DNA of 64,000 nucleotides from Bacteroidales bacterium (GCA_963678485.1 OY782882.1:4066339-4130338), one strand, 5' to 3'; numbered from the stretch's first letter, positions 35,782 to 49,415 are shown. Notes: generated by a model from the letters alone, not told the origin. Made by a program: numbers and translations.

Positions 35782-38064
35782 TTACTTTACCAGAATTTTT
35801 TGAACTGTGTTTATGTCATTATTAAACATCCGTACATAATAAATTCCTTTTTTTACATTTGATATGTTGATATCAAGAAGTCCATTACTAGTTATGTCAG
35901 CAACTTGATTGTAGACAATGGATCCAATGCTGTTGGCAATAATTATATTACATTTTCCTGTAACACCATTGGTTTGAATGTTGAATATTCCATCGTTTGG
36001 ATTTGGCAGAATGCTGAAATGATTTGTTTCATTGTCTTCAACTCCGGTACAAAATGAATAAGTAACGTTTGCAGAACCAGTTCCACTACAGCCATTGGCG
36101 GTAACGGTACAGTTAACTGTTGTGGTACCGAGGCCAAGCATTAAACTATCAACAATCAGTGATTGTCCTGTTCCACCACCAACTGACCAAGAATAGCTGG
36201 AATAGCCGGAACCTGCATCAAGTGTGGGTGTTAAATCAGAGCAATATGTACCACCTCCGGTTATCGTCGGTGAAGGTTTAGCATATTCTGCAATCGTAAA
36301 TGGAGCAGAGGAGGCAACGCAGCCTCTAGCGCTCGTTGTTTGAACTGTGTAGGTTCCTCCTGTAGTGATTGATAAAGGATTGGTTGTGCTTCCGCCGGGA
36401 GTCCAAATAAATGCTGAACCTGGGCTAGAAGTTAAGTTAACTGCATCACCAGTGCAAACTTGAGGACTTGAAGCATTAATTGTTGGTTTATAAGAACTGC
36501 ACACTAAATAAGGACGGACAACCATAGATACAGGATATCCATATAAGCTCAAAGTATCAAATGCAGATGTGCCAATTTTTATGAAGGTTTTGTAATCTGT
36601 AAATTGATTGTCAGTATACGCGATACCAATATTTGTTGTAGTTGTTACCTGACGAACACCGACGAAGTAAGTACCGGCAGCTAATGCCAGTGGTCCTGTT
36701 GATATTGGCAGCTTAACCCATTGGGCTCCTGCGGTGGTAATGGTATAAACATTTGAAGAAGCCACTAAAGTAGTCGGAAGGCCAGAAGCAAAATTATATA
36801 CCACCATCTGAAGCTGATTTCCTACGATTGGGCCAGTCAGATAAGTCAATACATTGGTAAGGACATCAGCGCTAGTAAGGGTGTAAGTATTTCCTAATAT
36901 AATCTCCGACCCTGTCAATCCAAGCGAACCATCGATATAACCTGTGAACATGGCATCATCCCGAGCGAACAATGAATCATCCACCATAAATGCTTCCAAA
37001 ATAGTATCGTTTGATGCGTCAGGATCTGTTTCCGTCATATCAACTAAATTAACACCAATATAAAAGCCTGTATCAGCAGGAGGTGTGTAGCTGGGAGCGA
37101 CAAGAGTTGTTAGTCCGTTTGGTGCGAGTGTAGGAACAATGTTACTTGCATTAGTTTGAATTACAGAGAAATCGCTACCGTTAATCAACATATTCGTCAT
37201 AAATACATTGGTTATGTTTGCGCCTCCATGATTTGACGCGATGGATGATTGAATCAATGGAGCAGCTGTAAATTGTTTTTTAGGTATTACAGAATATTCG
37301 TTCATATACACCCGGTCAACCAGTGCTGCATCGTATTGGGGGCGGCTATATACAAGAATATCATCAACAACCCACCAATAATCATATTGCCCTGTCCAAT
37401 GAAATCTAATTTTTACATTTGCCTGATTCGCTGCATAGGCAGAAATATTTACATCAACTGCATTGGGATTAGCAGAGGACTCATCCTGAATCAATCCGGT
37501 TTCTGCTGCGTATACTTGTGTCCAAGTACTGCCGTTATTATTACTGACTTCGAGGTGAGCAGTATTGGTTGCACCGTATTTAATAAACTGTTCATTAAAC
37601 GATACGAATACATAATTAACGCCTGTACAATTTATTGTTGGCGATGTTAGAGCGCAATTCTCTGCGGTAGAGGCAGAACCCATACTATCGCTATAAACGA
37701 TTGCATAACCATTAGAAAAGGTAGCTCCAGTGGAAGTATTTAGGACAAGCCCGTATTTAAGAGCAGTTTTCGCTCTTCTAATCCAATTCATAGTATTGGT
37801 AATAGGAGCCGCTGTCCATCCAGATGCTGCAAAAGAAGTCGAAAAATCCTGTGAAAGCAGTGTCGTGTAAGCCTTTGGCGTATTAGCCTTTTGTGGAATA
37901 AGGTGACTCTTTTGGTCAGAAGTCATGATGACTTGTTGTGGACCGGATTGTTGCAAATTAATATTCTTAGAGGAGATCTGTTTTGTTTGAGCCTCAACAG
38001 TATTACTCATTGTTGAGCACAAAACCATCGCCACCGCAAGAAATAAAAAAGAAATGTGTTTCAT
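35782..38064 (-). CDS. Large secreted protein (760 aa) with a type IX secretion C-terminal sorting domain, possibly an adhesin
   Basis: There is a signal peptide. A Thr/Ser-rich beta region is present. The C-terminal sorting domain is FSILPNPNDGIFNIQ. Confidence 0.5.
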   Translation of the reverse strand: MKHISFLFLAVAMVLCSTMSNTVEAQTKQISSKNINLQQSGPQQVIMTSDQKSHLIPQKANTPKAYTTLLSQDFSTSFAASGWTAAPITNTMNWIRRAKTALKYGLVLNTSTGATFSNGYAIVYSDSMGSASTAENCALTSPTINCTGVNYVFVSFNEQFIKYGATNTAHLEVSNNNGSTWTQVYAAETGLIQDESSANPNAVDVNISAYAANQANVKIRFHWTGQYDYWWVVDDILVYSRPQYDAALVDRVYMNEYSVIPKKQFTAAPLIQSSIASNHGGANITNVFMTNMLINGSDFSVIQTNASNIVPTLAPNGLTTLVAPSYTPPADTGFYIGVNLVDMTETDPDASNDTILEAFMVDDSLFARDDAMFTGYIDGSLGLTGSEIILGNTYTLTSADVLTNVLTYLTGPIVGNQLQMVVYNFASGLPTTLVASSNVYTITTAGAQWVKLPISTGPLALAAGTYFVGVRQVTTTTNIGIAYTDNQFTDYKTFIKIGTSAFDTLSLYGYPVSMVVRPYLVCSSYKPTINASSPQVCTGDAVNLTSSPGSAFIWTPGGSTTNPLSITTGGTYTVQTTSARGCVASSAPFTIAEYAKPSPTITGGGTYCSDLTPTLDAGSGYSSYSWSVGGGTGQSLIVDSLMLGLGTTTVNCTVTANGCSGTGSANVTYSFCTGVEDNETNHFSILPNPNDGIFNIQTNGVTGKCNIIIANSIGSIVYNQVADITSNGLLDINISNVKKGIYYVRMFNNDINTVQKILVK

Positions 38065-38280
38065 GGGATATTAGATTGGTTAATAATTTAATTTTGAGGG
38101 CAAAGATAGAAAATATTGTTAAGTGCTTGTGAAATAGTAGTGATATTTATTTGAAATAATAAGAATTCAAGCGAACTGTGTTGTTAATATTTTTTGAAGA
38201 GTTTATGCAAGAAATCTTCATTTTTATAAATAATGTATAAAAAAGTGCAGTTAACCATCTTGGACAACGCCTAATTTAGT

Positions 38281-38288
38281 AGCTTTGC
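38281..38288 (+). promoter_or_regulatory. Candidate Bacteroidota -7 box (TAGCTTTG, consensus TAnnTTTG) about 17 bp upstream of the first gene of the FHA/kinase cluster
   Basis: The motif is present and a TTG lies about 20 bp upstream. No other support. Confidence 0.25.
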
Positions 38289-38304: not shown

Positions 38305-38868
38305 ATGGGTGAGTTTAAGTTATGTAGCAATGGACATTATTACGACGACGCGCTCGCGGAATGCCCCTTTTGCCCTAAAATTTCCAAAAACATACAAAAC
38401 ATGGATCTTGACAAAACTAAGATCGACGGCGGTGATAAGCCACTGGACGATAAAACACAAATCTTTGGGGGGAGCAATCAGCCCAACCTCAACAAAACGC
38501 AAATATTCAGTGGAGATAGTCCGCAAGATATGCCGTGTTTTAACGAACAGAAAAACAATGCCGGGCGAAAGCTTACGGGTTGGCTGGTTTCGTTTACCAT
38601 GGACCCCCTGGGCGTTGATTTTCGCCTTTATGAAGGCAGGAATATCATTGGTTCCGATCCCCAGTGCGACATTGTGATTCCTAACGACAGTTCCGTTTCG
38701 GGAAAGCACCTTACGATTTTATTCCGCATGGGCGTGTTTAAATTCAAGGACGAGTTCAGTACCAACGGATCTTTTGTCAATGAGGTCTTTTGTGAAGAAG
38801 GAACGCTCAACGATGGCGATATCCTGAAAATTGGCAGTACTGTTTTTAAATTCCGCACCGCGGGCTGA
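38305..38868 (+). CDS. FHA-domain protein with an N-terminal Cys-containing (zinc-ribbon-like) segment
   Basis: The C-terminal FHA has GR...SGKH...NGSFVN. A KTQIF[GS]G linker repeat is present. The N-terminal segment is CSNGHYYDDALAECPFC. Confidence 0.7.
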   Translation: MGEFKLCSNGHYYDDALAECPFCPKISKNIQNMDLDKTKIDGGDKPLDDKTQIFGGSNQPNLNKTQIFSGDSPQDMPCFNEQKNNAGRKLTGWLVSFTMDPLGVDFRLYEGRNIIGSDPQCDIVIPNDSSVSGKHLTILFRMGVFKFKDEFSTNGSFVNEVFCEEGTLNDGDILKIGSTVFKFRTAG

Positions 38869-38888
38869 TTGTAGCACATTAAATTATT

Positions 38889-40367
38889 ATGAATATGAAA
38901 AAGTTGTTCAGCTTAATCAGCATTTTGGTGCTGACAGCAGGTTTTACGGCCTTTGGCCAAACGTTCAGCATTATAAATACTGACCCATCCAACTATCCCC
39001 AAATTGTGGTAAATGTGGATGTGCAGGATAAGGAAGATGCCCTTCAGGCGGATTTCAAAGTTACCGAAGATGGCAAAGACGTGCCTTTCACTTTCAGCAA
39101 GGATGCCGGAACTCAAGGGGGTGGCGGAAAAGCCATTTGCTTTTTGATTGAAGCTTCTGGTTATACGTATGGTGCACCCATTGAAAATTTCAAAAAAGCT
39201 ATCGCTGCCGCCATTCAGGCTTGTGGCGAAAACGATAAAATTAATGTGTGCTATTTTGGGAAAGCTAATTCTGACGGGCGTTCACTGAATACCATAAGCG
39301 CAGAATTTACTTCAGATAAAAGTACCCTGGTAAGTGAACTGAAAAGCAAAGTGACCGCAGTGCGCGATACCAATCGTGTTGCTGATGTTTTCAAAAGCAT
39401 TTACGAATGCCTCGACTTCATTAATTCTAAGCAGGATCTGCCATCTAACAAGGTTCTTATTGTAATCTCTGCTGCTATTAACAACAGTAAATCTCCTATA
39501 AAAGCTGAGGATTGCATCGATCAGGCGAATAAGTTCAGTATTCCCGTTTATACAATCACCTATAAAACCAACAATCGTTACGCTGCCGATAATTTTGTCC
39601 GCATCAGCGATAAAACTGAAGGTAAAAGTCAAAGTGCAAAAACATCTGATGAGATTAGCAGCGCCATTAACGATTTTGTGAATCGTGTTGATGAAAATGC
39701 TGTGTCTCCTTCGAATTCATATACTATTGAGTTTACCACCTCACAAAACAACGATCAAAACCTTTTTGATGTAAGCTATAAAGGCGCTAAACAATCGGGC
39801 AGTTTTACAATTCCTGAAGATAAAGTATCTTTTTGGAGTAAATATATGATTTGGATTATCATCATTGCTGCCATTTTAGTTGTTGTAATTACGCTGGTTG
39901 TTTGGTTCCTCATGCAAGGCAAAAAGAAGAAATCAGGCGAGAATGATCGTTTGCGTACTATGGAAGAACGTAATATTCAACTACAGCAGCAGATTAATCA
40001 ATCGAAGGATGTTAAAACTCAGATGACACCGCAGGAGCCTCAGAAATTTGACCTGAAACGCACTCAAATCGGTGGTGGTGGTGGAACTCCTCTGTTGATG
40101 GTGAGTTCCGGCGATTTTTCCAAGAACTTTCCACTGAACAAACCACAACTCACTATTGGACGTAATAGTGGTAATGATATCGTAATTCCTGAAAAAACAG
40201 TTTCCGGAAACCACGCAACATTAATCAATGAGAATGGTAATTGGTTTTTGCTTGATAATAACAGCACGAATGGAACATTTGTCAACGGAACCAAAATCAA
40301 CAAACAACGCATTGCTCCAACTGACGTGATTAAATTGGGCGCAGCGTTTCTTAAAATTCAATTCTAA
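38889..40367 (+). CDS. Membrane protein with a signal peptide, an extracytoplasmic vWA-like domain, one TM helix, a coiled coil and a cytoplasmic C-terminal FHA domain
   Basis: The signal peptide ends ...TAFGQ. The region IEASGYT...VLIVISAAINNS...IPVYTITYK is consistent with a vWA fold. The TM helix is IWIIIIAAILVVVITLVVWFLM. The FHA domain is GRNSGNDIVIP...SGNHATL...NGTFVNG. Confidence 0.65.
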   Translation: MNMKKLFSLISILVLTAGFTAFGQTFSIINTDPSNYPQIVVNVDVQDKEDALQADFKVTEDGKDVPFTFSKDAGTQGGGGKAICFLIEASGYTYGAPIENFKKAIAAAIQACGENDKINVCYFGKANSDGRSLNTISAEFTSDKSTLVSELKSKVTAVRDTNRVADVFKSIYECLDFINSKQDLPSNKVLIVISAAINNSKSPIKAEDCIDQANKFSIPVYTITYKTNNRYAADNFVRISDKTEGKSQSAKTSDEISSAINDFVNRVDENAVSPSNSYTIEFTTSQNNDQNLFDVSYKGAKQSGSFTIPEDKVSFWSKYMIWIIIIAAILVVVITLVVWFLMQGKKKKSGENDRLRTMEERNIQLQQQINQSKDVKTQMTPQEPQKFDLKRTQIGGGGGTPLLMVSSGDFSKNFPLNKPQLTIGRNSGNDIVIPEKTVSGNHATLINENGNWFLLDNNSTNGTFVNGTKINKQRIAPTDVIKLGAAFLKIQF

Positions 40368-40413: not shown

Positions 40414-41760
40414 ATGGTTGACACCCGGAAATTAAAAAACTTCGAATTTGGCAATGCCACGGATGTTGGTCGTGTGCGTGAGCAAAACGAGGATTATCTT
40501 GGCTATTTTGAATGTATCAATGGTCATGTATTCGTTGTATGCGATGGCATGGGCGGACACGTCGGCGGAGCGACTGCATCGCGATTAGCTGTTGACAGCG
40601 TGCGCGAATTCCTCGAGAATCACTATTTTGATCTGCCAACTGATGCTTTAAAAGCGGCCATTGAAAGCGCCAATGAGGCTGTTTATCTTCGTGCTGTTGA
40701 AAATCCACAGTTGTCGGGAATGGGCACCACCATTGTCATGGCTATAGTTCGTGATGATAAAGTGTGGTATGCCCACGTTGGTGATAGTCGCATTTACATG
40801 CATTCTGGTGGAAAGCTAATTAAGCTAACGCGCGATCATAGCTTTGTACAAACCCTGGTTGATCAGGGATTGCTGAAAGAAGAAGAAATGGAATCCCATC
40901 CTCGTCGCAACGAAATTCTTGCTGCGCTTGGTGTGCGTCACGACGTTGAGGTTACTTTATGTCAGAGTCCTGCAAGACCTTCCAATGGAGATATTCTTCT
41001 ATTGTGCACCGATGGACTTAACAGCATGATTAGTGATCCCATTACAGAAGCCGTGCTTAATGAGGAAATCTCGGTTCAGCATAAGGCGCTTAAGCTAATG
41101 CAGCTGGCCAATGAGGCGGGTGGTTACGATAATATTACTGTTCAGCTTGTACATTTTTATAATGTTGTCAACAAGAAATCTGATTTTATCCCAGCTTCGA
41201 AAATGCCGATGAATAATGGCACAAACAAGGAAAATGCACAGAAACCAAAACTGACAAAGAAAATGAAAAGGAACATTTTGTATGCAATCGTTGGATTGGC
41301 GCTGGTCGCTCTATGTTATTTTATTTGGGATATGTTTGGTAGTGGAGGCACTCCAGAGCCATTGGGCAGTGGGAATGCTAAAGATACTGTGATTTCTGAA
41401 CAACCGAGAGATACAGTGCAGCCGCAGACTCAGCAGGAAAATGCCGTTGCAAAGCCTGGAAAGGATACACTCTGGGTTAAGTATACCATCAAGAGTGGTG
41501 ATGTTCTGGGCAAGGTTTCTTCAAAATTTAATATTAAGATTGCTATCCTCAAGAAGAAGAATAGCTTGAAAACCGATGTTGTTCGCGTTGGTGATATTAT
41601 TCAGGTACCTGTTAAAGCTGAACATACCGTTGCTGCTGGTGAAACCATCGATGTTTTAGCTAAGAAATATAGTTCGGATAAAGATGCAATTCTTGCTGCA
41701 AACAGTGTTAAGAATGCCGCAGATCTTAAAGCAGGAATGAAAATCTACATACCTTTTTAA
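40414..41760 (+). CDS. PP2C-family Ser/Thr phosphatase with a TM helix and two extracytoplasmic LysM domains
   Basis: PP2C motifs are present: FVVCDGMGGH, YAHVGDSRIY and LLCTDGL. The TM helix is ILYAIVGLALVALCYFIW. There are two LysM repeats (YTIKSGDVLGKVS...; HTVAAGETIDVLAKKY...). Confidence 0.8.
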   Translation: MVDTRKLKNFEFGNATDVGRVREQNEDYLGYFECINGHVFVVCDGMGGHVGGATASRLAVDSVREFLENHYFDLPTDALKAAIESANEAVYLRAVENPQLSGMGTTIVMAIVRDDKVWYAHVGDSRIYMHSGGKLIKLTRDHSFVQTLVDQGLLKEEEMESHPRRNEILAALGVRHDVEVTLCQSPARPSNGDILLLCTDGLNSMISDPITEAVLNEEISVQHKALKLMQLANEAGGYDNITVQLVHFYNVVNKKSDFIPASKMPMNNGTNKENAQKPKLTKKMKRNILYAIVGLALVALCYFIWDMFGSGGTPEPLGSGNAKDTVISEQPRDTVQPQTQQENAVAKPGKDTLWVKYTIKSGDVLGKVSSKFNIKIAILKKKNSLKTDVVRVGDIIQVPVKAEHTVAAGETIDVLAKKYSSDKDAILAANSVKNAADLKAGMKIYIPF

Positions 41761-41841: not shown

Positions 41842-43617
41842 ATGATCGGAACCCAAATATTGAACTACCGCATCGAACGCCTTATTGGAGAAGGTGGCAT
41901 GGGGAACGTGTATCTGGGTGTGCATACACATATTGGGCGTAAGGTGGCCATCAAGGCGCTGAATCCCGGATTGGCCAAGAATCCTGAGATACGCGAGCGT
42001 TTTAAAAATGAAGCTTCCATGTTATCGCAGCTTCATCATCCGAACATCGTGCAATTGTACGATTATGTCGAGATGGAGCAAGGCGTTTTTTTGGTAATGG
42101 AATTCGCCGATGGTCAACCGCTGGATGAATATATTGAAAAGGTAACAGGTCCCATCCCTGAAGATAAGGCCTTACCAATGTTTGCAAAAATATTGGATGG
42201 TGTGGCCTATGCGCATAAAAAAAATGTGGTTCATCGGGATATTAAACCTTCCAATATTATTGTCAGCCCTGAAGGTAAGGTGAAGATTCTTGATTTTGGT
42301 ATTGCTAAAATTATCGGCGATAGTAATCATAAACTCACCAAAACAGGCACAAAGCTGGGCACTGTGCTCTATATGAGCCCGGAGCAAGTGAAAGGACAAA
42401 CACTTGATTTGCGAACCGACATCTATTCACTTGGAATTACGTTGTTTGAAATGCTAACGGGTAAATGTCCCTTCGATAGCAACAGCACAGAATACGAGGT
42501 TTACAAAAAAATTGTTGAAGAGCCAATGACCGACGCACGCACTCTGTATCCTGCTGTGAGTGCGCATTGCGCAAATGTTATCTTTAAGGCGACAAGCAAG
42601 GATGCCAATGATCGTTTTCAGGATTGTGCTGAATTTAAACAGTATTTACTGAACCCGCCAGTTGTTGCTGAAGCTACATCAACAAAGGACAAAAAGAAAA
42701 AACAGAAAGCTGCTGCAGTGTCCGCTGTTGGAGCAACGGCAACAGGAGTTTCAGCAAAGCGGCCACGGAAAAGGAATCTGTTGTTTTGGAATATTTTCAT
42801 GGCGTGTTTCCTTCTTACAGCATTGTGCATTACTACATACAAGCTTTTGTATGTAACTGAAGATCGTTACGTCATTGCATCCAAATTATATCTGAGAAGT
42901 TCAAAGAGCGTGGCAAGTAATGATAACGCAATCAAAGTAGTTGAATTCGGCGGACAGGTTCAAATTATTGATGAAGACAGTAATCCTGATGATGATGGAT
43001 TAACCTGGGCTAAAGTCCGCGATGCTTCGGGCAAAGAGGGATATGTTGCATTGAATTACCTTGGAACAAGAAAAGAATATGAGCAGATTCGTGGGATGTT
43101 TCTAGGCGAATCACAGGATCAAACTGTTGTTCAATATAAACTTGCTTTGCGCGATTACTTTGCTGAACAAGGATATTTCGATAGTGACCTTGATCCTAAA
43201 TGGAAGTTGAGTCCGGAAGGTGCTGGTTCAATCTACAATTGTTTTACTATAGGCGATTTTAATAATGACGGATTGGACGATTACGCTTGTGTAATCAGCA
43301 ATAAATATTACGAGGGCTGGCGATTGCTCGTTTTTGTAGCGAAAGGACATACTGAAACATCGCTTATTCTTGATGAAGAGATTTTTTATCAGGGATTAGT
43401 TTTAATTATGAAAAAGGGAGAGAAGATCAGCACTGGACGAACAAAGAACGTGATGGAATATGACGATGATGGTAATGTAGTGCAAACTTCAAAAAAAATC
43501 TATGAGTCGTTAGGCTCTGATGCATTAATATTGAAAGATAAATCCAATGGAAAGCGCCAGTTGTATGTGTTTAACCTGGGCGAAGGAAGCTTTAATCAAC
43601 CCATAGAAATGAAATGA
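41842..43617 (+). CDS. Hanks-type Ser/Thr protein kinase with a TM helix and extracytoplasmic SH3b-like and additional domains
   Basis: Kinase motifs are present: GEGGMGNVY, VAIK, HRDIKPSN, DFGIAK and SPE. The TM helix is LLFWNIFMACFLLTALCI. The SH3b-like region is VVEFGGQVQIIDE...GYVALNYL. Confidence 0.85.
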   Translation: MIGTQILNYRIERLIGEGGMGNVYLGVHTHIGRKVAIKALNPGLAKNPEIRERFKNEASMLSQLHHPNIVQLYDYVEMEQGVFLVMEFADGQPLDEYIEKVTGPIPEDKALPMFAKILDGVAYAHKKNVVHRDIKPSNIIVSPEGKVKILDFGIAKIIGDSNHKLTKTGTKLGTVLYMSPEQVKGQTLDLRTDIYSLGITLFEMLTGKCPFDSNSTEYEVYKKIVEEPMTDARTLYPAVSAHCANVIFKATSKDANDRFQDCAEFKQYLLNPPVVAEATSTKDKKKKQKAAAVSAVGATATGVSAKRPRKRNLLFWNIFMACFLLTALCITTYKLLYVTEDRYVIASKLYLRSSKSVASNDNAIKVVEFGGQVQIIDEDSNPDDDGLTWAKVRDASGKEGYVALNYLGTRKEYEQIRGMFLGESQDQTVVQYKLALRDYFAEQGYFDSDLDPKWKLSPEGAGSIYNCFTIGDFNNDGLDDYACVISNKYYEGWRLLVFVAKGHTETSLILDEEIFYQGLVLIMKKGEKISTGRTKNVMEYDDDGNVVQTSKKIYESLGSDALILKDKSNGKRQLYVFNLGEGSFNQPIEMK

Positions 43618-44909
43618 GAACACTCACAATAGGCAGGAGCAATTCGAATGATGTTGTTATCAAAGATACCTTTGTATCTGGATCGCATTGTTCGATAACG
43701 ATGGATGATAAAGGTGTGTTCTATTTGCAGGACCTCGGTTCAAGCAATGGCACATTTGTCAATGGAAAGCGCGTGCAGCAGGCATGGTTAAGAAGCAATG
43801 ATATTGTTAAGCTTGGTGAAACCGTAATTCCATGGCAGGAGTATTTTCAGGCCCCGAACGATAGTCATCTTAATGGAAATATAATCCGCAAGGTAACCAT
43901 GGGCCGTGCCCCAGATAACGAAATTGTTGTTGGTGATGATTTTGTTTCTTCGCATCATGCGGAGATTCTTATCACTGATCAAAATGAATATCTTGTTCAG
44001 GATTTAAATAGCACCAATGGTACTTTTGTTAATGACCGCAGAGTGATATCTTCTTTGCTGGTTCCCGGCGATCGTCTGCGACTTGCTCGTATTACGCTGG
44101 AATGGACCATGTTCTTCAGTGCACCTGCGTACAGTGAAACTCATACTGAAAAAAAATCCGCAAAGAGCTGGATTATTCCAACGCTGATTGCGCTAGGTGT
44201 TGTACTTGTTATAATCCTTGGCATCATGGGCATCATGAATATGAAAGGCAAGAGTACAAATGAAGAGGATCATTTGAATTCGAACGATACCACACTATCT
44301 GCCGGTAGTTTCAGTGATATGGTCAAAAGAGTTGAACAATCGGTTTTTTTGATTGAAAGCTATGATCGATACGGAAACAGCATGCAGGGTACGGGATTCT
44401 TTATTGCTGAAAATGGTATGGGTATCACCAATTATCATGTGGTTGAGGGTGGTACCAAATGGGTAATAAAGACAGTTGATGGCGCTTCCTATGAAGTCGA
44501 TGATTTTGTGGAACGGAACAAGAAATACGATTATGCCGTTTTCACGATTAATAATTCCGGCGATTATTTCAGGCCATTGCGCCGAAGCCTGAATACTCCA
44601 TCAAAAGGTGAGGAAATCTTCGTTATCGGAAATCCTCAGGGCATCGAAAGTACGGTCACCAAAGGTATTGTTTCAGGCCTGAAAGGCGGAACAGAAGACG
44701 ATATTATGAACGGAACATTCTCCGAAGGAAGTAATTTTGTTCAGATTGATGTTGCCATTTCCCATGGTAGCAGCGGTAGTCCGGTGCTAAATATGAAAGG
44801 TGAGGTGGTTGGAATTGCAACGCTCTCGTTTCAGGAATCCAATTGTATCAATTGTAACTTCGCTGTAAATATTCAATTGGTAAAACAGTATGTTGAGCCA
44901 AAACGATAG
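43614..44909 (+). CDS. Tandem-FHA, single-TM, trypsin-like (S1/HtrA-type) serine protease
   Basis: There are two FHA domains (GRSNSNDVVI...SGSH...NGTFVNG; GRAPDNEIVV...SSHH...NGTFVND). The TM helix is IIPTLIALGVVLVIILGIMGI. Protease residues are TNYHVV, DYAVF and the catalytic-Ser loop HGSSGSPV. The start overlaps the kinase stop (ATGA). Confidence 0.8.
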   Translation: MRTLTIGRSNSNDVVIKDTFVSGSHCSITMDDKGVFYLQDLGSSNGTFVNGKRVQQAWLRSNDIVKLGETVIPWQEYFQAPNDSHLNGNIIRKVTMGRAPDNEIVVGDDFVSSHHAEILITDQNEYLVQDLNSTNGTFVNDRRVISSLLVPGDRLRLARITLEWTMFFSAPAYSETHTEKKSAKSWIIPTLIALGVVLVIILGIMGIMNMKGKSTNEEDHLNSNDTTLSAGSFSDMVKRVEQSVFLIESYDRYGNSMQGTGFFIAENGMGITNYHVVEGGTKWVIKTVDGASYEVDDFVERNKKYDYAVFTINNSGDYFRPLRRSLNTPSKGEEIFVIGNPQGIESTVTKGIVSGLKGGTEDDIMNGTFSEGSNFVQIDVAISHGSSGSPVLNMKGEVVGIATLSFQESNCINCNFAVNIQLVKQYVEPKR

Positions 44910-45041
44910 CTGGAGAATTTGTAGATTGGTAAATTAGTTTTTACAGCACTTCTCACATTGAAAACCTTTTCAAATAACGTCTTGTTTCTTAGAGCAAAGG
45001 CCCTATAAGGGGTTATTGGGTTTACAAGTTAATTGGGTTTT
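44836..45041 (+). repeat. Left copy of the 206-211 bp target-site duplication flanking the IS
   Basis: It is identical to 46721-46926, possibly extended by 5 bp (TCAGG) on the left. It contains the last ~74 nt of the protease CDS plus 132 bp downstream. Confidence 0.85.
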
Positions 45042-46720
45042 CCTGACTTTGACACTTTAAAAATCACGAATTTGTAACTACCACAAATACATTCACATAT
45101 AAATTTTGCGCCACCCGTTTGGGTGACGCAAGAACAAAATGACTTATTTTAGCGTATGTTCATACGTAAAAAGAAAAATAGGTCAGGAACCACGAGTGTA
45201 GTCGTTGTAGATAAAACTCATGGGAAATATATCGAATTAAAAACAATTGGGGTAAGTAGTGATAGTTCCCAGATCGATAATCTGATAAAACAAGCAAAAC
45301 AATGGATAGATGCTCAATGTGGTATCCAAGATGTTTTTTGTATAAAAGCCAAGGAGCAAGAAGAAAAACAGGTAACTGAACACTTGTTGTCAAACATTGA
45401 AAACATCCTAATCAATGGCACGCAGTTGATTTTGGATAAGGTATTCCATCTTATTGGTTTCGATAAAATATATGATGACATATTGCGTCATTTGGTTGTT
45501 GCCCGTTTAAGCCAACCGATGAGCAAGTCGGCTACGGTAGATTATCTAAAATCATATTTTGATGAAGATGTGCAGCTATACAAGATATATCGTTATTTGG
45601 ACAAACTATACAATACCCAACAAGAGCGGATACAGCAAATCAGTGTTGAGCACACACGGAAGATATTGGGTGGTAAAATCGGCTTAATGTTTTATGATGT
45701 AACCACACTTTATTTTGAGTCTGATTATGGTGATGAACTAAGAGAAAATGGGTTTTCTAAAGACGGAAAGCACAGTCAGCCACAAGTAGTGCTGGGTTTA
45801 TTAGTAAGTAAAGGGGGCTATCCCCTTTCTTACTCTATTTTCAACGGCTCTCAATACGAGGGGCGAACGATGTTGCCCATAATTGACGATTTTGTTCGAC
45901 GTTTTAATTTGGATGACTTTGTAGTGGTTGCCGATTCGGGTTTGATGAGTAAATCAAACATATCATTGTTGGAATCCGGGGGGTACAAATACATTATCGG
46001 GGCAAGAATAAAAAACGAGACGGAAGAAATCAAGCAATGGATTTTATCTTTAGATAAATGCGATAATGAATTTCACGAACTAAAAAAGGAGAATACCCGG
46101 TTAATTGTAGGATATTCTTCAACCAGGGCAAAGAAAGACAAATACAATAGGGAAAAAGGCGTTAAACGCCTTCAGAAAGCCTATAAGAGTGGTAATATAA
46201 CGAAAGAAAATATCAACAAACGGGGTTATAATAAATTCTTGGAAATTTCGGATAATGTAAAAGTTTGCATTAATCAACATAAGATTGAAGAAGATGCTCA
46301 ATGGGACGGGCTAAAAGGATATATAACCAATACAACACTTTCGGCACAAGATGTTTATGAGCAATACAATGGCTTGTGGGTGGTCGAGAATGCTTTCAGG
46401 GTAACAAAAGGAACACTTGAAATGCGTCCGATGTTTCACTTTACACCACGCAGAATAGAAGCACATGTATGCATATGTTTTATAGCTTATAAGGTATATA
46501 AGGAGTTGGATCGGATACTAAAAACCAACAACATAAACCTGAGTGTAGATAAAGTACTTAGCATCGCCAAAACCATAACTACTGTCAAAGTCAGATTGCC
46601 ACTCAGCGATACTATCATGTCAAAGACAATGCTTGTCACGACAAGGCACAAATCTATTGCTATGCTATTTGATGAAAATTTCTGGAAAAATTTTTAGGGT
46701 GACGCATAGTCAAAGTCAGG
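45042..46720 (+). mobile_element. IS1634-family (IS4-related) insertion sequence with a 12-bp perfect terminal inverted repeat CCTGACTTTGAC and a very long target-site duplication
   Basis: The 12-bp inverted repeat lies at 45042-45053 and 46709-46720. It carries a single 513-aa transposase ORF. Flanking direct repeats of about 206-211 bp are present. Confidence 0.75.
45156..46697 (+). CDS. IS1634-family DDE transposase
   Basis: The ORF is 513 aa. The N-terminus MFIRKKKNRSGTTSVVVVDK and overall architecture are typical of IS1634-type transposases. An RNase-H-like DDE region is present. Confidence 0.7.
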   Translation: MFIRKKKNRSGTTSVVVVDKTHGKYIELKTIGVSSDSSQIDNLIKQAKQWIDAQCGIQDVFCIKAKEQEEKQVTEHLLSNIENILINGTQLILDKVFHLIGFDKIYDDILRHLVVARLSQPMSKSATVDYLKSYFDEDVQLYKIYRYLDKLYNTQQERIQQISVEHTRKILGGKIGLMFYDVTTLYFESDYGDELRENGFSKDGKHSQPQVVLGLLVSKGGYPLSYSIFNGSQYEGRTMLPIIDDFVRRFNLDDFVVVADSGLMSKSNISLLESGGYKYIIGARIKNETEEIKQWILSLDKCDNEFHELKKENTRLIVGYSSTRAKKDKYNREKGVKRLQKAYKSGNITKENINKRGYNKFLEISDNVKVCINQHKIEEDAQWDGLKGYITNTTLSAQDVYEQYNGLWVVENAFRVTKGTLEMRPMFHFTPRRIEAHVCICFIAYKVYKELDRILKTNNINLSVDKVLSIAKTITTVKVRLPLSDTIMSKTMLVTTRHKSIAMLFDENFWKNF

Positions 46721-46926
46721 AATCCAATTGTATCAATTGTAACTTCGCTGTAAATATTCAATTGGTAAAACAGTATGTTGAGCCAAAACGATAGCTGGAG
46801 AATTTGTAGATTGGTAAATTAGTTTTTACAGCACTTCTCACATTGAAAACCTTTTCAAATAACGTCTTGTTTCTTAGAGCAAAGGCCCTATAAGGGGTTA
46901 TTGGGTTTACAAGTTAATTGGGTTTT
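46721..46926 (+). repeat. Right copy of the IS target-site duplication
   Basis: It is identical to 44836-45041. Confidence 0.85.
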
Positions 46927-47592: not shown

Positions 47593-48324
47593 CTACGTCA
47601 GTCCATTGTTTTCGAGAAGTGCGAAAAATGATTTTCGATAGTTCTCACCGACAGGAATCAACTGATCGCCTATTCGGATGCGATTGCGTTCCACAGAAGT
47701 GATTTTATCCAGTGCAATCATGTAGCTGCGGTGCACTCTCACAAAGCGTGGTTCGGTAAGCACACTTTCCACTTTCTTAAAACTTTGCAACGTCATGATG
47801 CGTTCTTTAGTGGTGACAATCCTTACGTAGTCGCCCATTCCTTCGATATAGAGGATATCGGAAAGAAATACTTTTTGAAGACGAAATTCGGTTTTTACAA
47901 AGAAGAAGTCCTTTTCGTTTGGTTTTGCTGCGCTTTCGAGTTGCTGCATAACCGGCATTTTCTTAAGACTTATTTTTTCGTACACTTTATCAACCGCTAT
48001 CAGGAAGCGCTCGAAGGAAATAGGTTTTAATAAATAATCGGTCACATCAAGATCAAATCCCTGAATAGCATATTCGTTATATGCGGTTGTAAAAATAACT
48101 TCCGGACGTTCTTTCAGAACTTTCAATAATTGTATACCAGAGAGTTCTTCCATTTGAATATCTAGAAATAGCAAATCTACCTTGTTTTGCTTGAGGTAGT
48201 CGATGCATTCAAGGGCACTGGTGAAGGATTTTTTAAGATCCAGATACGGAATCTTTTTAATATATTCTTCGAGGATATTCAGGGCGAGTGGTTCGTCGTC
48301 AACCACTATACAAGGGATGATCAT
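47593..48324 (-). CDS. LytTR-family response regulator
   Basis: The receiver domain has IVVDDEPLAL, the phospho-acceptor Asp in LFLDIQM, and K105. The C-terminal LytTR DNA-binding domain is present. Confidence 0.8.
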   Translation of the reverse strand: MIIPCIVVDDEPLALNILEEYIKKIPYLDLKKSFTSALECIDYLKQNKVDLLFLDIQMEELSGIQLLKVLKERPEVIFTTAYNEYAIQGFDLDVTDYLLKPISFERFLIAVDKVYEKISLKKMPVMQQLESAAKPNEKDFFFVKTEFRLQKVFLSDILYIEGMGDYVRIVTTKERIMTLQSFKKVESVLTEPRFVRVHRSYMIALDKITSVERNRIRIGDQLIPVGENYRKSFFALLENNGLT

Positions 48325-49415
48325 AATTCTTTTAATATTAGTTTAACGTGATAGGTATTGCCTTCAATACCTGCAGTTAGCTCATGTTTTCCAGGATAGG
48401 TAATTTCCAACCGGCGTTTTACATTCTGCATACCTATACCTTTTTGTGGATCTTTACTCTGGTTTTCGTTTTCGGAAAGAAAGCTGGTGATCTCGAAGAA
48501 AAAGCGAGAACCTTCGCAATTGATATTTATAATGATTCCCGGAGCTTCCACGCTTTTGCTTCCATGCTTAAATGCATTTTCGATAAAGGTGATAAGTAGC
48601 ATAGGAGGGATGAGCTTCCCTTCTGTTTGACCTTTCAAATCAAACTTTATAAAGTTGGGTGTGTTGATGCGAAGTTGTTGTAATTCGATATAACTTTTGA
48701 TGTAGGTGATTTCTTTTTCAAGAAAAACTTTTTCCGTATTGCTTTCATATAGCATATAACGAAGGATGTCGCTGAGTTTCATTAATGCTCCGGGGGCTTC
48801 ATCCGACTTTCTGTAAACCAGTGAATACAGGTTGTTGAGCGTGTTGAATAAAAAATGTGGATTGATTTGCGAACGTAATAATGCTATTTCTGCTTGCTGA
48901 CTTTGTTTTTCCAACTCATCTTTTTGTTTTTGTGCTTTTATCCATCCAACAAAAAATGTGATAAGTAGAGAAATCACTGTATAGATTAGTGTAGTGACAA
49001 AATACTGCATTATATCAATGTACCATGCAACGATTTCATCATCTGGTTTTGCGTAGTAATGGTCAAGCACCTGACCTGCATAAAATCTGATTGCAGTAAA
49101 TACAATCACTACAGGAATCAGCCACCACATATAACGTAGTGTCTGCGTACTTTTCATTACATTTTTGTTGATGAATAAAAAACAAATATAGAAGTTAAGA
49201 ATATTTGTCAATCCGAATACGAAAAGGTATTCAAACAATCCCGGATGCCCCATCTCCGTAATAATTGAAGAAGTGATTGGCAATCCCAGGAAAAGCAGCC
49301 AGAATACAGAGTGCAGTAAAATGTGATGCTTGAGTTTCATGTTGAATGATGGTTGAGAATAAAGGGTCTGTTGAAAATTAGAATGTAAATATAACATGTT
49401 TTTTTTGTGGAACAA
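48321..49415 (-). CDS. LytS-type sensor histidine kinase (5-6 TM helices plus His_kinase/HATPase)
   Basis: The phospho-His box is LRSQINPHFLFNTLNNL. It is multi-TM at the N-terminus. It overlaps the regulator gene by 4 bp. Confidence 0.8.
   Translation of the reverse strand: MFHKKNMLYLHSNFQQTLYSQPSFNMKLKHHILLHSVFWLLFLGLPITSSIITEMGHPGLFEYLFVFGLTNILNFYICFLFINKNVMKSTQTLRYMWWLIPVVIVFTAIRFYAGQVLDHYYAKPDDEIVAWYIDIMQYFVTTLIYTVISLLITFFVGWIKAQKQKDELEKQSQQAEIALLRSQINPHFLFNTLNNLYSLVYRKSDEAPGALMKLSDILRYMLYESNTEKVFLEKEITYIKSYIELQQLRINTPNFIKFDLKGQTEGKLIPPMLLITFIENAFKHGSKSVEAPGIIININCEGSRFFFEITSFLSENENQSKDPQKGIGMQNVKRRLEITYPGKHELTAGIEGNTYHVKLILKEL

Follow-up and report, generated by a model that had tools for sequence, protein, structure and literature searches.

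The window, i.e., the whole stretch of 64,000 nucleotides of Bacteroidales DNA that was analysed, contains a five-gene operon, encoded entirely on the plus strand, which comprises in this order the genes of a Zn-ribbon-FHA protein, a vWA-like-TM-FHA protein, a Stp1-type PP2C phosphatase with a transmembrane (TM) helix and two LysM domains, a Hanks-type kinase with a TM helix and an SH3b/beta ectodomain and, in last position, a protease. The first product (38305-38868; Pfam and sequence) is soluble and combines an N-terminal Cys/His zinc-ribbon-like motif (C7..H11..C20..C23) with an FHA domain. The second (38889-40367; Pfam, hydropathy and TIGR03436) consists of a signal peptide, a vWA-like ectodomain, a TM helix and a cytoplasmic FHA domain, the vWA assignment being weak insofar as TIGR03436 matches residues 38-291 with an E-value of 7e-9 and 35.6 bits vs. 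a cut-off of 81 and Pfam yields no VWA match. The phosphatase (40414-41760; Pfam, NCBIfam and hydropathy) belongs to the Stp1/IreP family, whose model it matches with 253.5 bits, above the cut-off of 230, and its catalytic domain is followed by a TM helix and two periplasmic LysM domains.

The fourth gene (41842-43617; Pfam, hydropathy, NCBIfam and structural model) encodes a Hanks-type Ser/Thr kinase of 591 amino acids having a cytoplasmic kinase domain, a disordered juxtamembrane segment (residues 275-310), a TM helix at about residues 311-336 and periplasmic SH3b-like, helical and beta-rich domains. The PASTA-kinase model gives 317 bits vs. a cut-off of 450 and matches the kinase domain alone, there being no PASTA repeats in this ectodomain. 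A cluster of Thr residues in the activation loop (LTKTGTKLGT) is conserved among the relatives, whereas the juxtamembrane Thr residues are not. The kinase ectodomain, used as the sole query, returned 2 matches, and the full-length kinase was then used as the query. As to the signals flanking the operon, scans for sigma-70 promoters and terminators were uninformative, with counts not exceeding the shuffle expectation, and the promoters of Bacteroidota are of a different type; a search ahead of the operon found no strict Bacteroidota -33/-7 promoter pattern but a lone TAGCTTTG at 38280-38287. A few kb upstream there is a phosphoglucomutase gene, as there is in a relative with 68% identity, and an IS element is located immediately 3' of the protease gene. 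T9SS sorting domains are encoded nearby and, together with the homologues, place the sequence in Bacteroidota.

The protease gene is a complete ORF (43614-44909, plus strand) that specifies 431 amino acids with the architecture FHA-FHA-TM-S1C, as indicated by the ORF call, Pfam, the homologues and the AF2 model. Its junction with the kinase gene reads ...GAA ATG AAA TGA GAA..., so that the protease ATG (43614-43616) and the kinase stop TGA (43615-43617) share the 4-nt sequence ATGA (43614-43617). This overlap of start and stop codons, already pointed out in the preliminary description, recurs in two relatives, P0007 and P0014, with identities of 68% and 51%, respectively, whereas in more distant relatives it is not kept and the two genes are separated by gaps of 11 nt and 283 nt. 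The translational coupling that had also been proposed is suggested by the overlap alone.

The preliminary description further depicted the product as carrying two complete FHA domains, a single TM helix and, beyond the membrane, an S1 protease with an intact triad, and all these elements are upheld by the evidence set out here. On the 431-aa protein Pfam detects FHA (2.6e-43) in two stretches and Trypsin_2 (6.3e-26) at residues 259-401. The public data hold an identical protein and a sequence search yielded ~60 homologues of the same FHA-FHA-TM-S1 architecture; the architecture is confirmed as real and is far beyond chance. The AF2 model has a mean pLDDT of 84.8 and a pTM of 0.50, a value uninformative on the inter-domain arrangement.

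The two FHA domains (PF00498, 146.7 bits vs. a cut-off of 20.7, in two separate stretches) occupy residues 2-72 (43617-43829) and 90-162 (43881-44099), where AF2 places two beta-sandwiches with pLDDT >90. Each contains the canonical residues, namely G7-R8, S22, H25 and N45-G46 in the first and G97-R98, S112, H115 and N135-G136 in the second. In an alignment of 28 homologues R98, S112, H115 and N135 are invariant, as are S22, H25 and N45, while the Arg of the first domain is replaced by Lys in 6 of the 28. By their conserved contact residues (Arg of the b3-b4 loop, Ser/His of b4-b5 and Asn of b6-b7) both domains are of the pThr-binding type and are predicted to bind this ligand. The linker between them (residues 73-89) consists of ~17 residues and has no Thr; the sole disordered Thr-bearing segment of the protease is the Lys-rich cytoplasmic linker that follows the second domain (residues 171-185, ...YSETHTEKKSAKS; 44124-44168; AF2 pLDDT <50). 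Within it T176 and T178 might be candidate phospho-acceptors, the Thr residues of this linker being only loosely conserved among the 28 homologues.

Hydropathy reveals exactly one hydrophobic segment (residues about 187-208), which corresponds to the TM helix (residues 187-210; 44172-44243) that AF2 builds between two disordered linkers, and a single TM segment is found in every one of the 28 homologues examined. Hydropathy and sequence analysis detected no N-terminal signal peptide in the protease, and the K+R residues counted across the 28 homologues number 123 before the TM helix vs. 56 after it. Since there is no signal peptide, the TM helix is single, the distribution of charges follows the positive-inside bias and the nearest protease relatives are the periplasmic DegS/HtrA, the protein is predicted to be a type-II (N-in, C-out) inner-membrane protein whose FHA domains would be cytoplasmic and whose protease would be outside. 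A cytoplasmic location of the protease is unlikely, given the missing signal peptide and the positive-inside bias.

The extracytoplasmic part is an S1C (DegS/HtrA-like) protease domain without PDZ (residues 233-427; 44310-44894), recognized by Pfam, PDB search, alignment, AF2 and Foldseek. When aligned with HtrA/HTRA1 its catalytic triad, far from being degenerate, comprises H275 (44436-44438, in TNYHVV), D306 (44529-44531, in YDYAVF) and S387 (44772-44774), the middle Ser of G385-S-S387-G-S-P390, i.e., of the loop GSSGSP to which the nucleophile had been assigned. These three residues are invariant across the 28 homologues, which are 28-76% identical, and this invariance rules out that the protein is a pseudo-protease. 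The best PDB sequence matches are HtrA, HTRA1 and DegS (E down to 5e-22), while the top Foldseek matches of the AF2 model are DegS-deltaPDZ structures (E 1e-15, TM about 0.8). The chymotrypsin fold, the H-D-S triad, the GxSGxP oxyanion loop and these nearest relatives define an S1C-type protease; the domain nevertheless does not reach the curated NCBIfam thresholds of the HtrA families (degP_htrA_DO, 106.8 vs. 416 bits; DegS, 81 vs. 423; HhoA, 90 vs. 450). Pfam finds no PDZ domain in the protein, which in the AF2 model stops 4 residues past the last helix of the protease domain. The domain also contains a CxNC motif (C411, 44844-44846; C414, 44853-44855).

The operon, or at least the association of kinase and PP2C, is encountered again in other Bacteroidota and in Spirochaetia, Clostridia and Gemmatimonadota. 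The entire five-gene operon is also found in relatives with 68% and 39% identity, the kinase-protease pair with the 4-nt overlap at 51% identity, and PP2C, kinase and protease together at 41%. Loci of Spirochaetia, Clostridia and Bacteroidales display the order protease, Zn-FHA, PP2C, kinase, with other kinases (STK-FHA or a kinase of 1256 aa) and no vWA protein, and in Gemmatimonadota the kinase adjoins the protease. A contig scan with full-length alignment, keyed on the generic FHA motif DLxSxNGTFV, yielded mostly unrelated FHA proteins, the useful loci being L001, L007 and L037. The first of these, a Bacteroidales example (Sangeribacter, 28% identity), encodes an FHA-FHA-TM-S1 protein of a long-insert subtype adjoining Zn-FHA, PP2C and kinases; a Zn-ribbon-FHA gene lies next to PP2C and kinase there and in L086, L002, L003 and L005. 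The parts that remain constant across the family are the FHA-FHA-TM-S1 protein, the Zn-FHA protein, the PP2C and the kinase domain.

Of 15 FHA-bearing loci 9 have a kinase gene no more than 8-10 kb away, vs. none of 32 loci that encode the closest FHA-less paralogues (Fisher p 4e-6, the loci not being phylogenetically independent), and at six FHA-bearing loci, the Raineya-like ones included, there is no kinase within 7-10 kb. Because the gene neighbourhood is conserved across phyla, a functional linkage of the protease to the kinase is strongly supported. The protease belongs to a conserved multi-phylum family whose architecture has already been catalogued.

Among the known systems, PknF/Rv1747 offers a close parallel, and the protein of the window may be regarded as its protease analogue. 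Rv1747 of M. tuberculosis, encoded in the PknF operon, is an ABC exporter whose two FHA domains are cytoplasmic, and it is positively regulated by phosphorylation (PMC3138270, PMC3908365, PMC8339232). In both cases the kinase gene is directly upstream in the same operon and two N-terminal, cytoplasmic FHA domains are borne by a membrane protein whose working part is across or outside the membrane. On the other hand, the output of Rv1747 is an ABC transporter, instead of a periplasmic serine protease, its inter-FHA linker is long and contains pT150/pT208, unlike the short Thr-less one found here, and beyond the FHA fold there is no sequence orthology between the two proteins. With E. coli DegS and other membrane-anchored HtrA (S1C) proteases, its best sequence and structure matches, the protein shares an N-terminal anchor followed by a periplasmic chymotrypsin-fold protease with H-D-S triad and GxSGxP; it differs from DegS/DegP by the absence of their regulatory PDZ and by a 185-residue tandem-FHA cytoplasmic module that replaces the short tail. 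MarP of M. tuberculosis, by which the peptidoglycan hydrolase RipA is activated, is likewise a membrane-tethered S1 protease of the periplasm; it has cell-wall enzymes as targets and shows a weak NCBIfam similarity (63 bits vs. a cut-off of 250), but it possesses four TM helices, lacks FHA domains and is without a link to a kinase. Among the membrane-anchored HtrA proteases, that of mycobacteria controls an amidase of the cell wall (PMC6538288).

The domain string FHA-FHA-Trypsin was listed once in a 2008 protease survey, where B. thetaiotaomicron NP_811686.1 is reported as a unique architecture under "metabolism and signalling" (PMC2605481); the comparison with this protein is by the catalogue description, which gives no topology, operon or function. 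In the literature this entry is the only record that was found, no functional study of FHA-FHA-Trypsin proteins having been retrieved. As to the other genes of the operon, in Sulfolobus ArnA is a Zn-finger-FHA protein and ArnB a vWA protein. Clusters of vWA, FHA, PP2C and Hanks-kinase genes have been described, as in the case of Deinococcus DRA0331-0334 (bioRxiv 10.64898/2026.01.23.701218). In the operon, similarly, Zn-ribbon-FHA and vWA-like proteins are encoded together with a PP2C and a Hanks kinase, but the described clusters are without protease and the vWA-like domain, which remains below the family cut-off, is here periplasmic and TM-fused to FHA. With the Stk1/Stp1 PASTA-kinase pair the operon shares the Stp1/IreP PP2C but not the PASTA ectodomain of the kinase.

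What could be the function of a protease endowed with such a cytoplasmic module? Since members of the family are encoded in operons alongside a Ser/Thr kinase and a phosphatase, proteolysis in the cell envelope is probably under the control of kinase signalling. In the explanation that we favour, and to which we attach a slightly better than even chance of being right as a whole, the FHA-FHA-TM protease would be the output, or one output, of the membrane Hanks-kinase module of the operon, its state being set by pThr docking. The TM kinase would autophosphorylate and/or phosphorylate Thr residues on proteins of the module, and the Stp1-type PP2C with the LysM ectodomain would remove these phosphates. 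The tandem FHA domains would dock on the pThr residues made by the kinase, for which the kinase activation loop, its juxtamembrane region and the protease's own linker between the second FHA domain and the TM helix are candidate sites; in this way the protease would be brought to the kinase complex or clustered with it. As control of HtrA-type proteases is exerted through their oligomeric and allosteric state, docking could determine how the periplasmic protease is clustered, where it is placed or how active it is, and hence where and how strongly envelope proteins are cleaved; as the protease is joined to the FHA domains by a single TM helix and disordered linkers, only clustering or localisation would seem to offer a route. 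As the partners have LysM and SH3b domains, a role related to the envelope or to peptidoglycan is suggested. That control proceeds from the inside, with cytoplasmic pThr governing proteolysis outside, is a reasonable inference, but a scaffolded cleavage of the partners' ectodomains and a sensing from the outside fit the same data.

According to the former of these two alternatives, the FHA domains would do no more than hold the protease at the kinase complex once this is phosphorylated; there the protease would clip the SH3b/beta domain of the kinase, the LysM region of the PP2C or the vWA-like ectodomain and switch the signal on or off, much as DegS, a site-1 signalling protease, does by cleaving RseA; proteolysis would then be feedback within the circuit and not its output. 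Consistent with such processing, the operon's four membrane proteins all have ectodomains exposed beside the protease, whose closest structural relative is DegS, and the genes of kinase and protease overlap; the ectodomains of the partners, however, vary across the family, other kinases and no vWA protein being found in Spirochaetia, Clostridia and Bacteroidales, and we deem this alternative unlikely. Sensing from the outside would entail that the periplasmic domain binds misfolded envelope proteins or peptides, as is the case for DegS/DegP, and by its occupancy or oligomerisation repositions the FHA domains, which would sequester pThr or present it to kinase or phosphatase. HtrA-family proteases are indeed ligand-activated sensors, the model has a DegS-like fold, and FHA domains can serve as kinase regulators and adaptors. 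But PDZ, the peptide sensor of DegS/DegP, is absent, the protein ending at residue 431, the kinases at every locus have ectodomains of their own and the strict invariance of the triad points to catalysis as the selected function, so that we find this possibility rather improbable.

Many proteins that are annotated "serine protease Do" and have Trypsin_2 alone, with no FHA, are 40-49% identical to the protease domain, which could also mean that the protein is a housekeeping enzyme of periplasmic quality control, for which the FHA domains and the kinase neighbourhood would be of little consequence; yet in both FHA domains the residues for pThr binding are kept from 28% identity upward and, in different phyla, linkage to kinase and PP2C goes along with the presence of FHA, which makes this very unlikely. 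Finally, an anti-phage or abortive-infection module, in which the kinase would trigger a protease effector, might be evoked by domain-level matches in PADLOC-DB 2.0 (the kinase with PD-T4-6/MAD6, the protease domain with RT-Protease_XI and the protease regions of LmuA/HamA) and by the IS element directly downstream. These matches, however, are generic to kinase and trypsin folds, no system-specific partner is found and two of the operon proteins are without any PADLOC match; moreover, the effector domain would face the periplasm, envelope domains of the LysM, SH3b and vWA-like kinds are found in the partners, and the chromosomal context is conserved, with the phosphoglucomutase gene upstream here and in the 68% relative. 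This function is thus exceedingly improbable, and with matches so generic and a context that is syntenic a defence island is an unlikely reading of the locus.

Returning to the protease as an output of the kinase module, a more specific proposal, which we advance only tentatively and are inclined to doubt, is that phosphorylation by the Hanks kinase in the cytoplasm is read by the tandem FHA domains and relayed outward, where pThr-driven clustering switches on this PDZ-less HtrA-type periplasmic protease, which would then remodel envelope or peptidoglycan enzymes or shed the sensor ectodomains of its own signalling complex. To our knowledge, few direct outputs of bacterial Hanks-type kinases have been identified and almost all are cytoplasmic; a conserved fusion in which pThr recognition is coupled to a protease of the periplasm would represent a concrete and testable route from the state of a kinase to the envelope proteome, and suggests how an HtrA-type enzyme could be regulated without the usual PDZ. 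The LysM, SH3b and vWA-like ectodomains of the partners hint at a complex for peptidoglycan or envelope surveillance, which in Bacteroidota would correspond to the PASTA-kinase/Stp1 systems. As gut Bacteroidales have members of the family too, it is accessible to study in Bacteroides, which is genetically tractable. If the proposed wiring is correct, it would be the first described case of inside-out control of extracytoplasmic proteolysis by Ser/Thr phosphorylation in bacteria, and this control would be conserved in Bacteroidota, gut Bacteroidales included, Spirochaetota, Clostridia, Chloroflexota and Gemmatimonadota.

The protease gene is the last of five co-directional, tightly packed genes separated by gaps of 20, 46 and 81 nt and then by a 4-nt overlap; it occupies positions 43614..44909 of the plus strand, encodes 431 residues and begins within an ATGA in which its own ATG (43614–43616) overlaps the TGA of the kinase gene (43615–43617), the junction reading ATGAAATGAGAA. 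Pfam searches return FHA (2.6e-43) in two stretches and Trypsin_2 (6.3e-26) at residues 259–401, and the canonical phosphothreonine-contact residues are present in both FHA1 (R8/S22/H25/N45) and FHA2 (R98/S112/H115/N135). The catalytic triad consists of H275 (TNYHVV), D306 (YDYAVF) and S387, the middle serine of G385-S-S-G-S-P390; since it aligns residue-for-residue with the triads of HtrA and HTRA1 and is invariant across 28 aligned homologues having 28–76% identity to this protein, the triad is not degenerate, and the possibility of a dead protease is effectively excluded. Thus, the preliminary description of two complete FHA domains, an intact triad and a start codon overlapping the kinase stop proved accurate overall; what it omitted is the S1C-like, PDZ-less identity of the protease, the five-gene operon and the multi-phylum family.

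A Kyte–Doolittle scan of the protein detects a single hydrophobic segment (about residues 187–208) and no N-terminal signal sequence. The AlphaFold2 model built on the alignment of the 28 homologues (mean pLDDT 84.8) consists of two FHA β-sandwiches (2–72 and 90–162), a disordered Lys-rich linker (171–185), one long helix (187–210), a second disordered linker (212–229) and a chymotrypsin fold (233–427), so that the single transmembrane segment proposed earlier is borne out. Exactly one hydrophobic segment is found in each of the 28 family members, whose summed Lys + Arg content is 123 in the 15 residues before this segment vs 56 in the 15 after it. This positive-inside bias points to a cytoplasmic FHA module and a protease lying outside, and the same orientation, already put forward in the preliminary description, is suggested by the lack of a signal peptide and by the need of the FHA domains to meet ATP-dependent phosphorylation; a cytoplasmic protease is very unlikely in view of the bias and the missing signal peptide.

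The nearest solved relatives by sequence are T. maritima HtrA, human HTRA1, HhoA, MucD and DegS (E 5e-22 to 1e-17), and by structure the crystal forms of DegS-deltaPDZ rank first (E 1e-15, target TM about 0.8), followed in the fold search by the RsgI9 S1C domain, DegP and HTRA1. No PDZ match is found in the protein, whose chain stops 4 residues past the final helix of the protease fold, and its scores with the NCBIfam HtrA/DegS/MarP models are far below every cut-off. As judged from sequence, the enzyme is an S1C-like domain devoid of the defining regulatory PDZ, outside the DegP/DegS equivalogs, and is predicted to work like a membrane-anchored HtrA. The only cysteines of the ectodomain, C411 and C414, form a CxNC pair (44844–44855) towards the C-terminal end of the protease domain. 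This pair is >90% conserved in the close clade of Bacteroidota, is lacking in distant subtypes, and may form a disulfide in the periplasm, bind a metal or have a redox role.

The other genes of the operon, all on the plus strand, encode, according to domain searches and hydropathy, a soluble protein with a Zn-ribbon-like Cys/His N-terminus and an FHA domain (38305–38868); a protein with a signal peptide, a ~290-residue ectodomain of weak vWA similarity (TIGR03436, E 7e-9, below cut-off), a transmembrane segment and a cytoplasmic FHA domain (38889–40367); a PP2C phosphatase (Stp1/IreP, 253.5 vs a cut-off of 230 bits) with a transmembrane segment and two periplasmic LysM domains (40414–41760); and a Hanks kinase with a disordered juxtamembrane stretch, a transmembrane segment and a periplasmic region (41842–43617) in which AlphaFold2 confidently predicts SH3b-like (340–405), helical (410–443) and β-rich (454–590) parts. 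From these assignments the four membrane proteins are therefore predicted to point catalytic or FHA modules into the cytoplasm and modules for binding or enzymatic activity into the periplasm. A transmembrane Stp1/IreP-type PP2C bearing LysM, a peptidoglycan-binding domain, is unusual, and this cell-wall-binding ectodomain suggests that kinase and phosphatase both read the envelope. The kinase ectodomain (residues 339–591, 42856–43614) has a pLDDT around 90 and contains the motif GDFNNDGLDDYAC with an invariant D480 and a nearly invariant C483; orthologues matching the kinase over its full length (35–83% identity) are widespread in Bacteroidota, Bacteroidales included. In Sulfolobus, the Zn-finger-FHA protein ArnA is paired with the vWA protein ArnB; the first two products of the operon (38305–40367) resemble this pair as well as the vWA/FHA/PP2C/kinase operon of Deinococcus, the vWA match being sub-threshold.

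A TAGCTTTG at 38280–38287, 18–25 nt upstream of the first ATG in a divergent intergenic region of 240 nt, fits the Bacteroidota −7 consensus TAnnTTTG and is a candidate operon promoter. In the window, as in the 68%-identical relative, the operon is preceded at a distance of a few kilobases by a phosphoglucomutase gene, which indicates a stable chromosomal locus and not a mobile island. The flanking genes are ordinary, encoding a secreted protein of 760 aa that bears a C-terminal sorting domain of the T9SS (35782–38064, minus strand) and a two-component pair consisting of a LytTR response regulator and a LytS-type His_kinase (47593–49415, minus strand). Directly past the protease stop codon is an IS element (45040–46722) with perfect 14-nt terminal inverted repeats, TTCCTGACTTTGAC, and a 513-aa DDE_Tnp_1 transposase (45156–46697), flanked by a perfect direct repeat of 211 bp (44831–45041 = 46716–46926) comprising 79 nt from the 3' end of the protease gene, whose ORF is intact, and 132 nt downstream. 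We take this long target duplication to be reminiscent of IS1634-family elements, and the insertion may have separated the operon from the genes that come after it in relatives.

A word-indexed search found an identical protein on an NCBI contig and about 60 full-length homologues of the same architecture, mostly unnamed or automatically annotated as "FHA domain-containing protein" or "S1-C subfamily serine protease". When representatives at 50% identity were searched exhaustively, 174 proteins had E<=1e-30, and among the best 150 some 20–25 cover both the FHA and the protease parts; the family is real and modest in size. In the literature library searched, no functional work on FHA-FHA-trypsin proteins was found, the sole mention being a survey from 2008 on serine proteases of prokaryotes, where "FHA-FHA-Tryp" has a single entry (B. 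thetaiotaomicron NP_811686.1) classed as "metabolism and signalling", without further analysis (PMC2605481). The protease thus belongs to a catalogued but functionally uncharacterised family.

The entire five-gene operon recurs with homologues of 68% (P0007) and 39% (P0038) identity; at 51% (P0014) a 584-aa kinase with a homologous ectodomain precedes the protease with the same 4-nt overlap (locus L081), and at 41% (P0036, locus L085) PP2C, kinase and protease are adjacent. A long-insert subtype, found in Spirochaetia (P0094), Clostridia (P0119) and Bacteroidales (Sangeribacter, L001), has the order protease, Zn-FHA, PP2C, kinase-FHA, after which a second large transmembrane kinase often comes, and the FHA-FHA-TM-S1 architecture is also present in Anaerolineales (L007) and Gemmatimonadota (L037), in the latter with an adjoining kinase. 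As a control, a metagenome scan with the alignment of the protease domain only yielded the closest FHA-less paralogues (S1 32–49% identical); a Hanks kinase or PP2C is nearby in none of their 32 loci that span 6 kb or more vs 9 of the 15 FHA-bearing loci (Fisher p = 4e-6, indicative only, since the loci are not phylogenetically independent). Six of these 15, including Raineya-like ones, lack an adjacent kinase. In four of these six (L082, L105, L106 and L108, seemingly two distinct proteins) the equivalent of R8 in FHA1 is Lys (IGK) and the Arg of FHA2 is kept; in the small sample of kinase-adjacent members examined, Arg is found in both domains in all cases. Large FHA-rich clusters in a Bacteroidales MAG (L003, 8000–20600) and a Prevotellaceae MAG (L005, 480–14300) each contain a Zn-FHA, several different FHA-plus-TM proteins, a PP2C and at least one Hanks kinase, and L003 additionally encodes a vWA-TM-FHA protein. 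Kinase loci of Bacteroidales seem to share the FHA-TM-effector design as a common theme, in which the FHA-FHA protease would be one among several alternative "heads".

The closest working analogue of the kinase–protease pair is PknF/Rv1747 of M. tuberculosis, in which the kinase shares an operon with Rv1747, a membrane protein whose N-terminal part carries two cytoplasmic FHA domains and which is positively regulated by phosphorylation through FHA–phosphothreonine interactions (PMC3138270, PMC3908365, PMC8339232). By analogy, the operon kinase would generate phosphothreonines to be bound by the tandem FHA module, candidate sites being the activation-loop cluster LTKTGTKLGT, conserved among the kinases with T166 invariant, and T176 and T178 in the disordered linker (171–185) of the protease; PP2C would erase these marks. 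Once bound, the FHA module would bring the protease to the kinase complex or cluster it there. Proteases of the HtrA type are controlled by their oligomeric and allosteric state and are normally gated by PDZ; since PDZ is absent here, clustering or localisation is the plausible control point. The LysM and SH3b ectodomains of the partners suggest an envelope or peptidoglycan context, for which mycobacterial HtrA (PMC6538288) and MarP, membrane-anchored S1 proteases acting on cell-wall hydrolases, offer precedents. Beyond domains, topology and linkage, this model is inferred as a whole, and we lean only slightly towards it; the "inside-out" reading of the preliminary description is plausible.

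Alternatively, the protease might be tethered so as to cleave the ectodomains of its own partners in a DegS/RseA-style signalling or feedback, but these ectodomains differ between subtypes and such a role is unlikely. That the protease domain acts as an outside-in sensor is quite improbable, given that it has no PDZ, that the kinases carry ectodomains of their own and that the triad is strictly conserved. The conservation of the FHA residues and the restriction of kinase linkage to FHA-bearing proteins speak against a housekeeping protease with incidental FHA domains, to which we accord very little probability, and an anti-phage module is hardly credible in view of the generic kinase and trypsin matches, the only ones returned by PADLOC, of the periplasmic effector and of the syntenic locus. 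If reversible FHA docking does control the protease, the mechanism would join FHA-mediated Hanks-kinase control of membrane machines with the membrane-anchored HtrA proteases.
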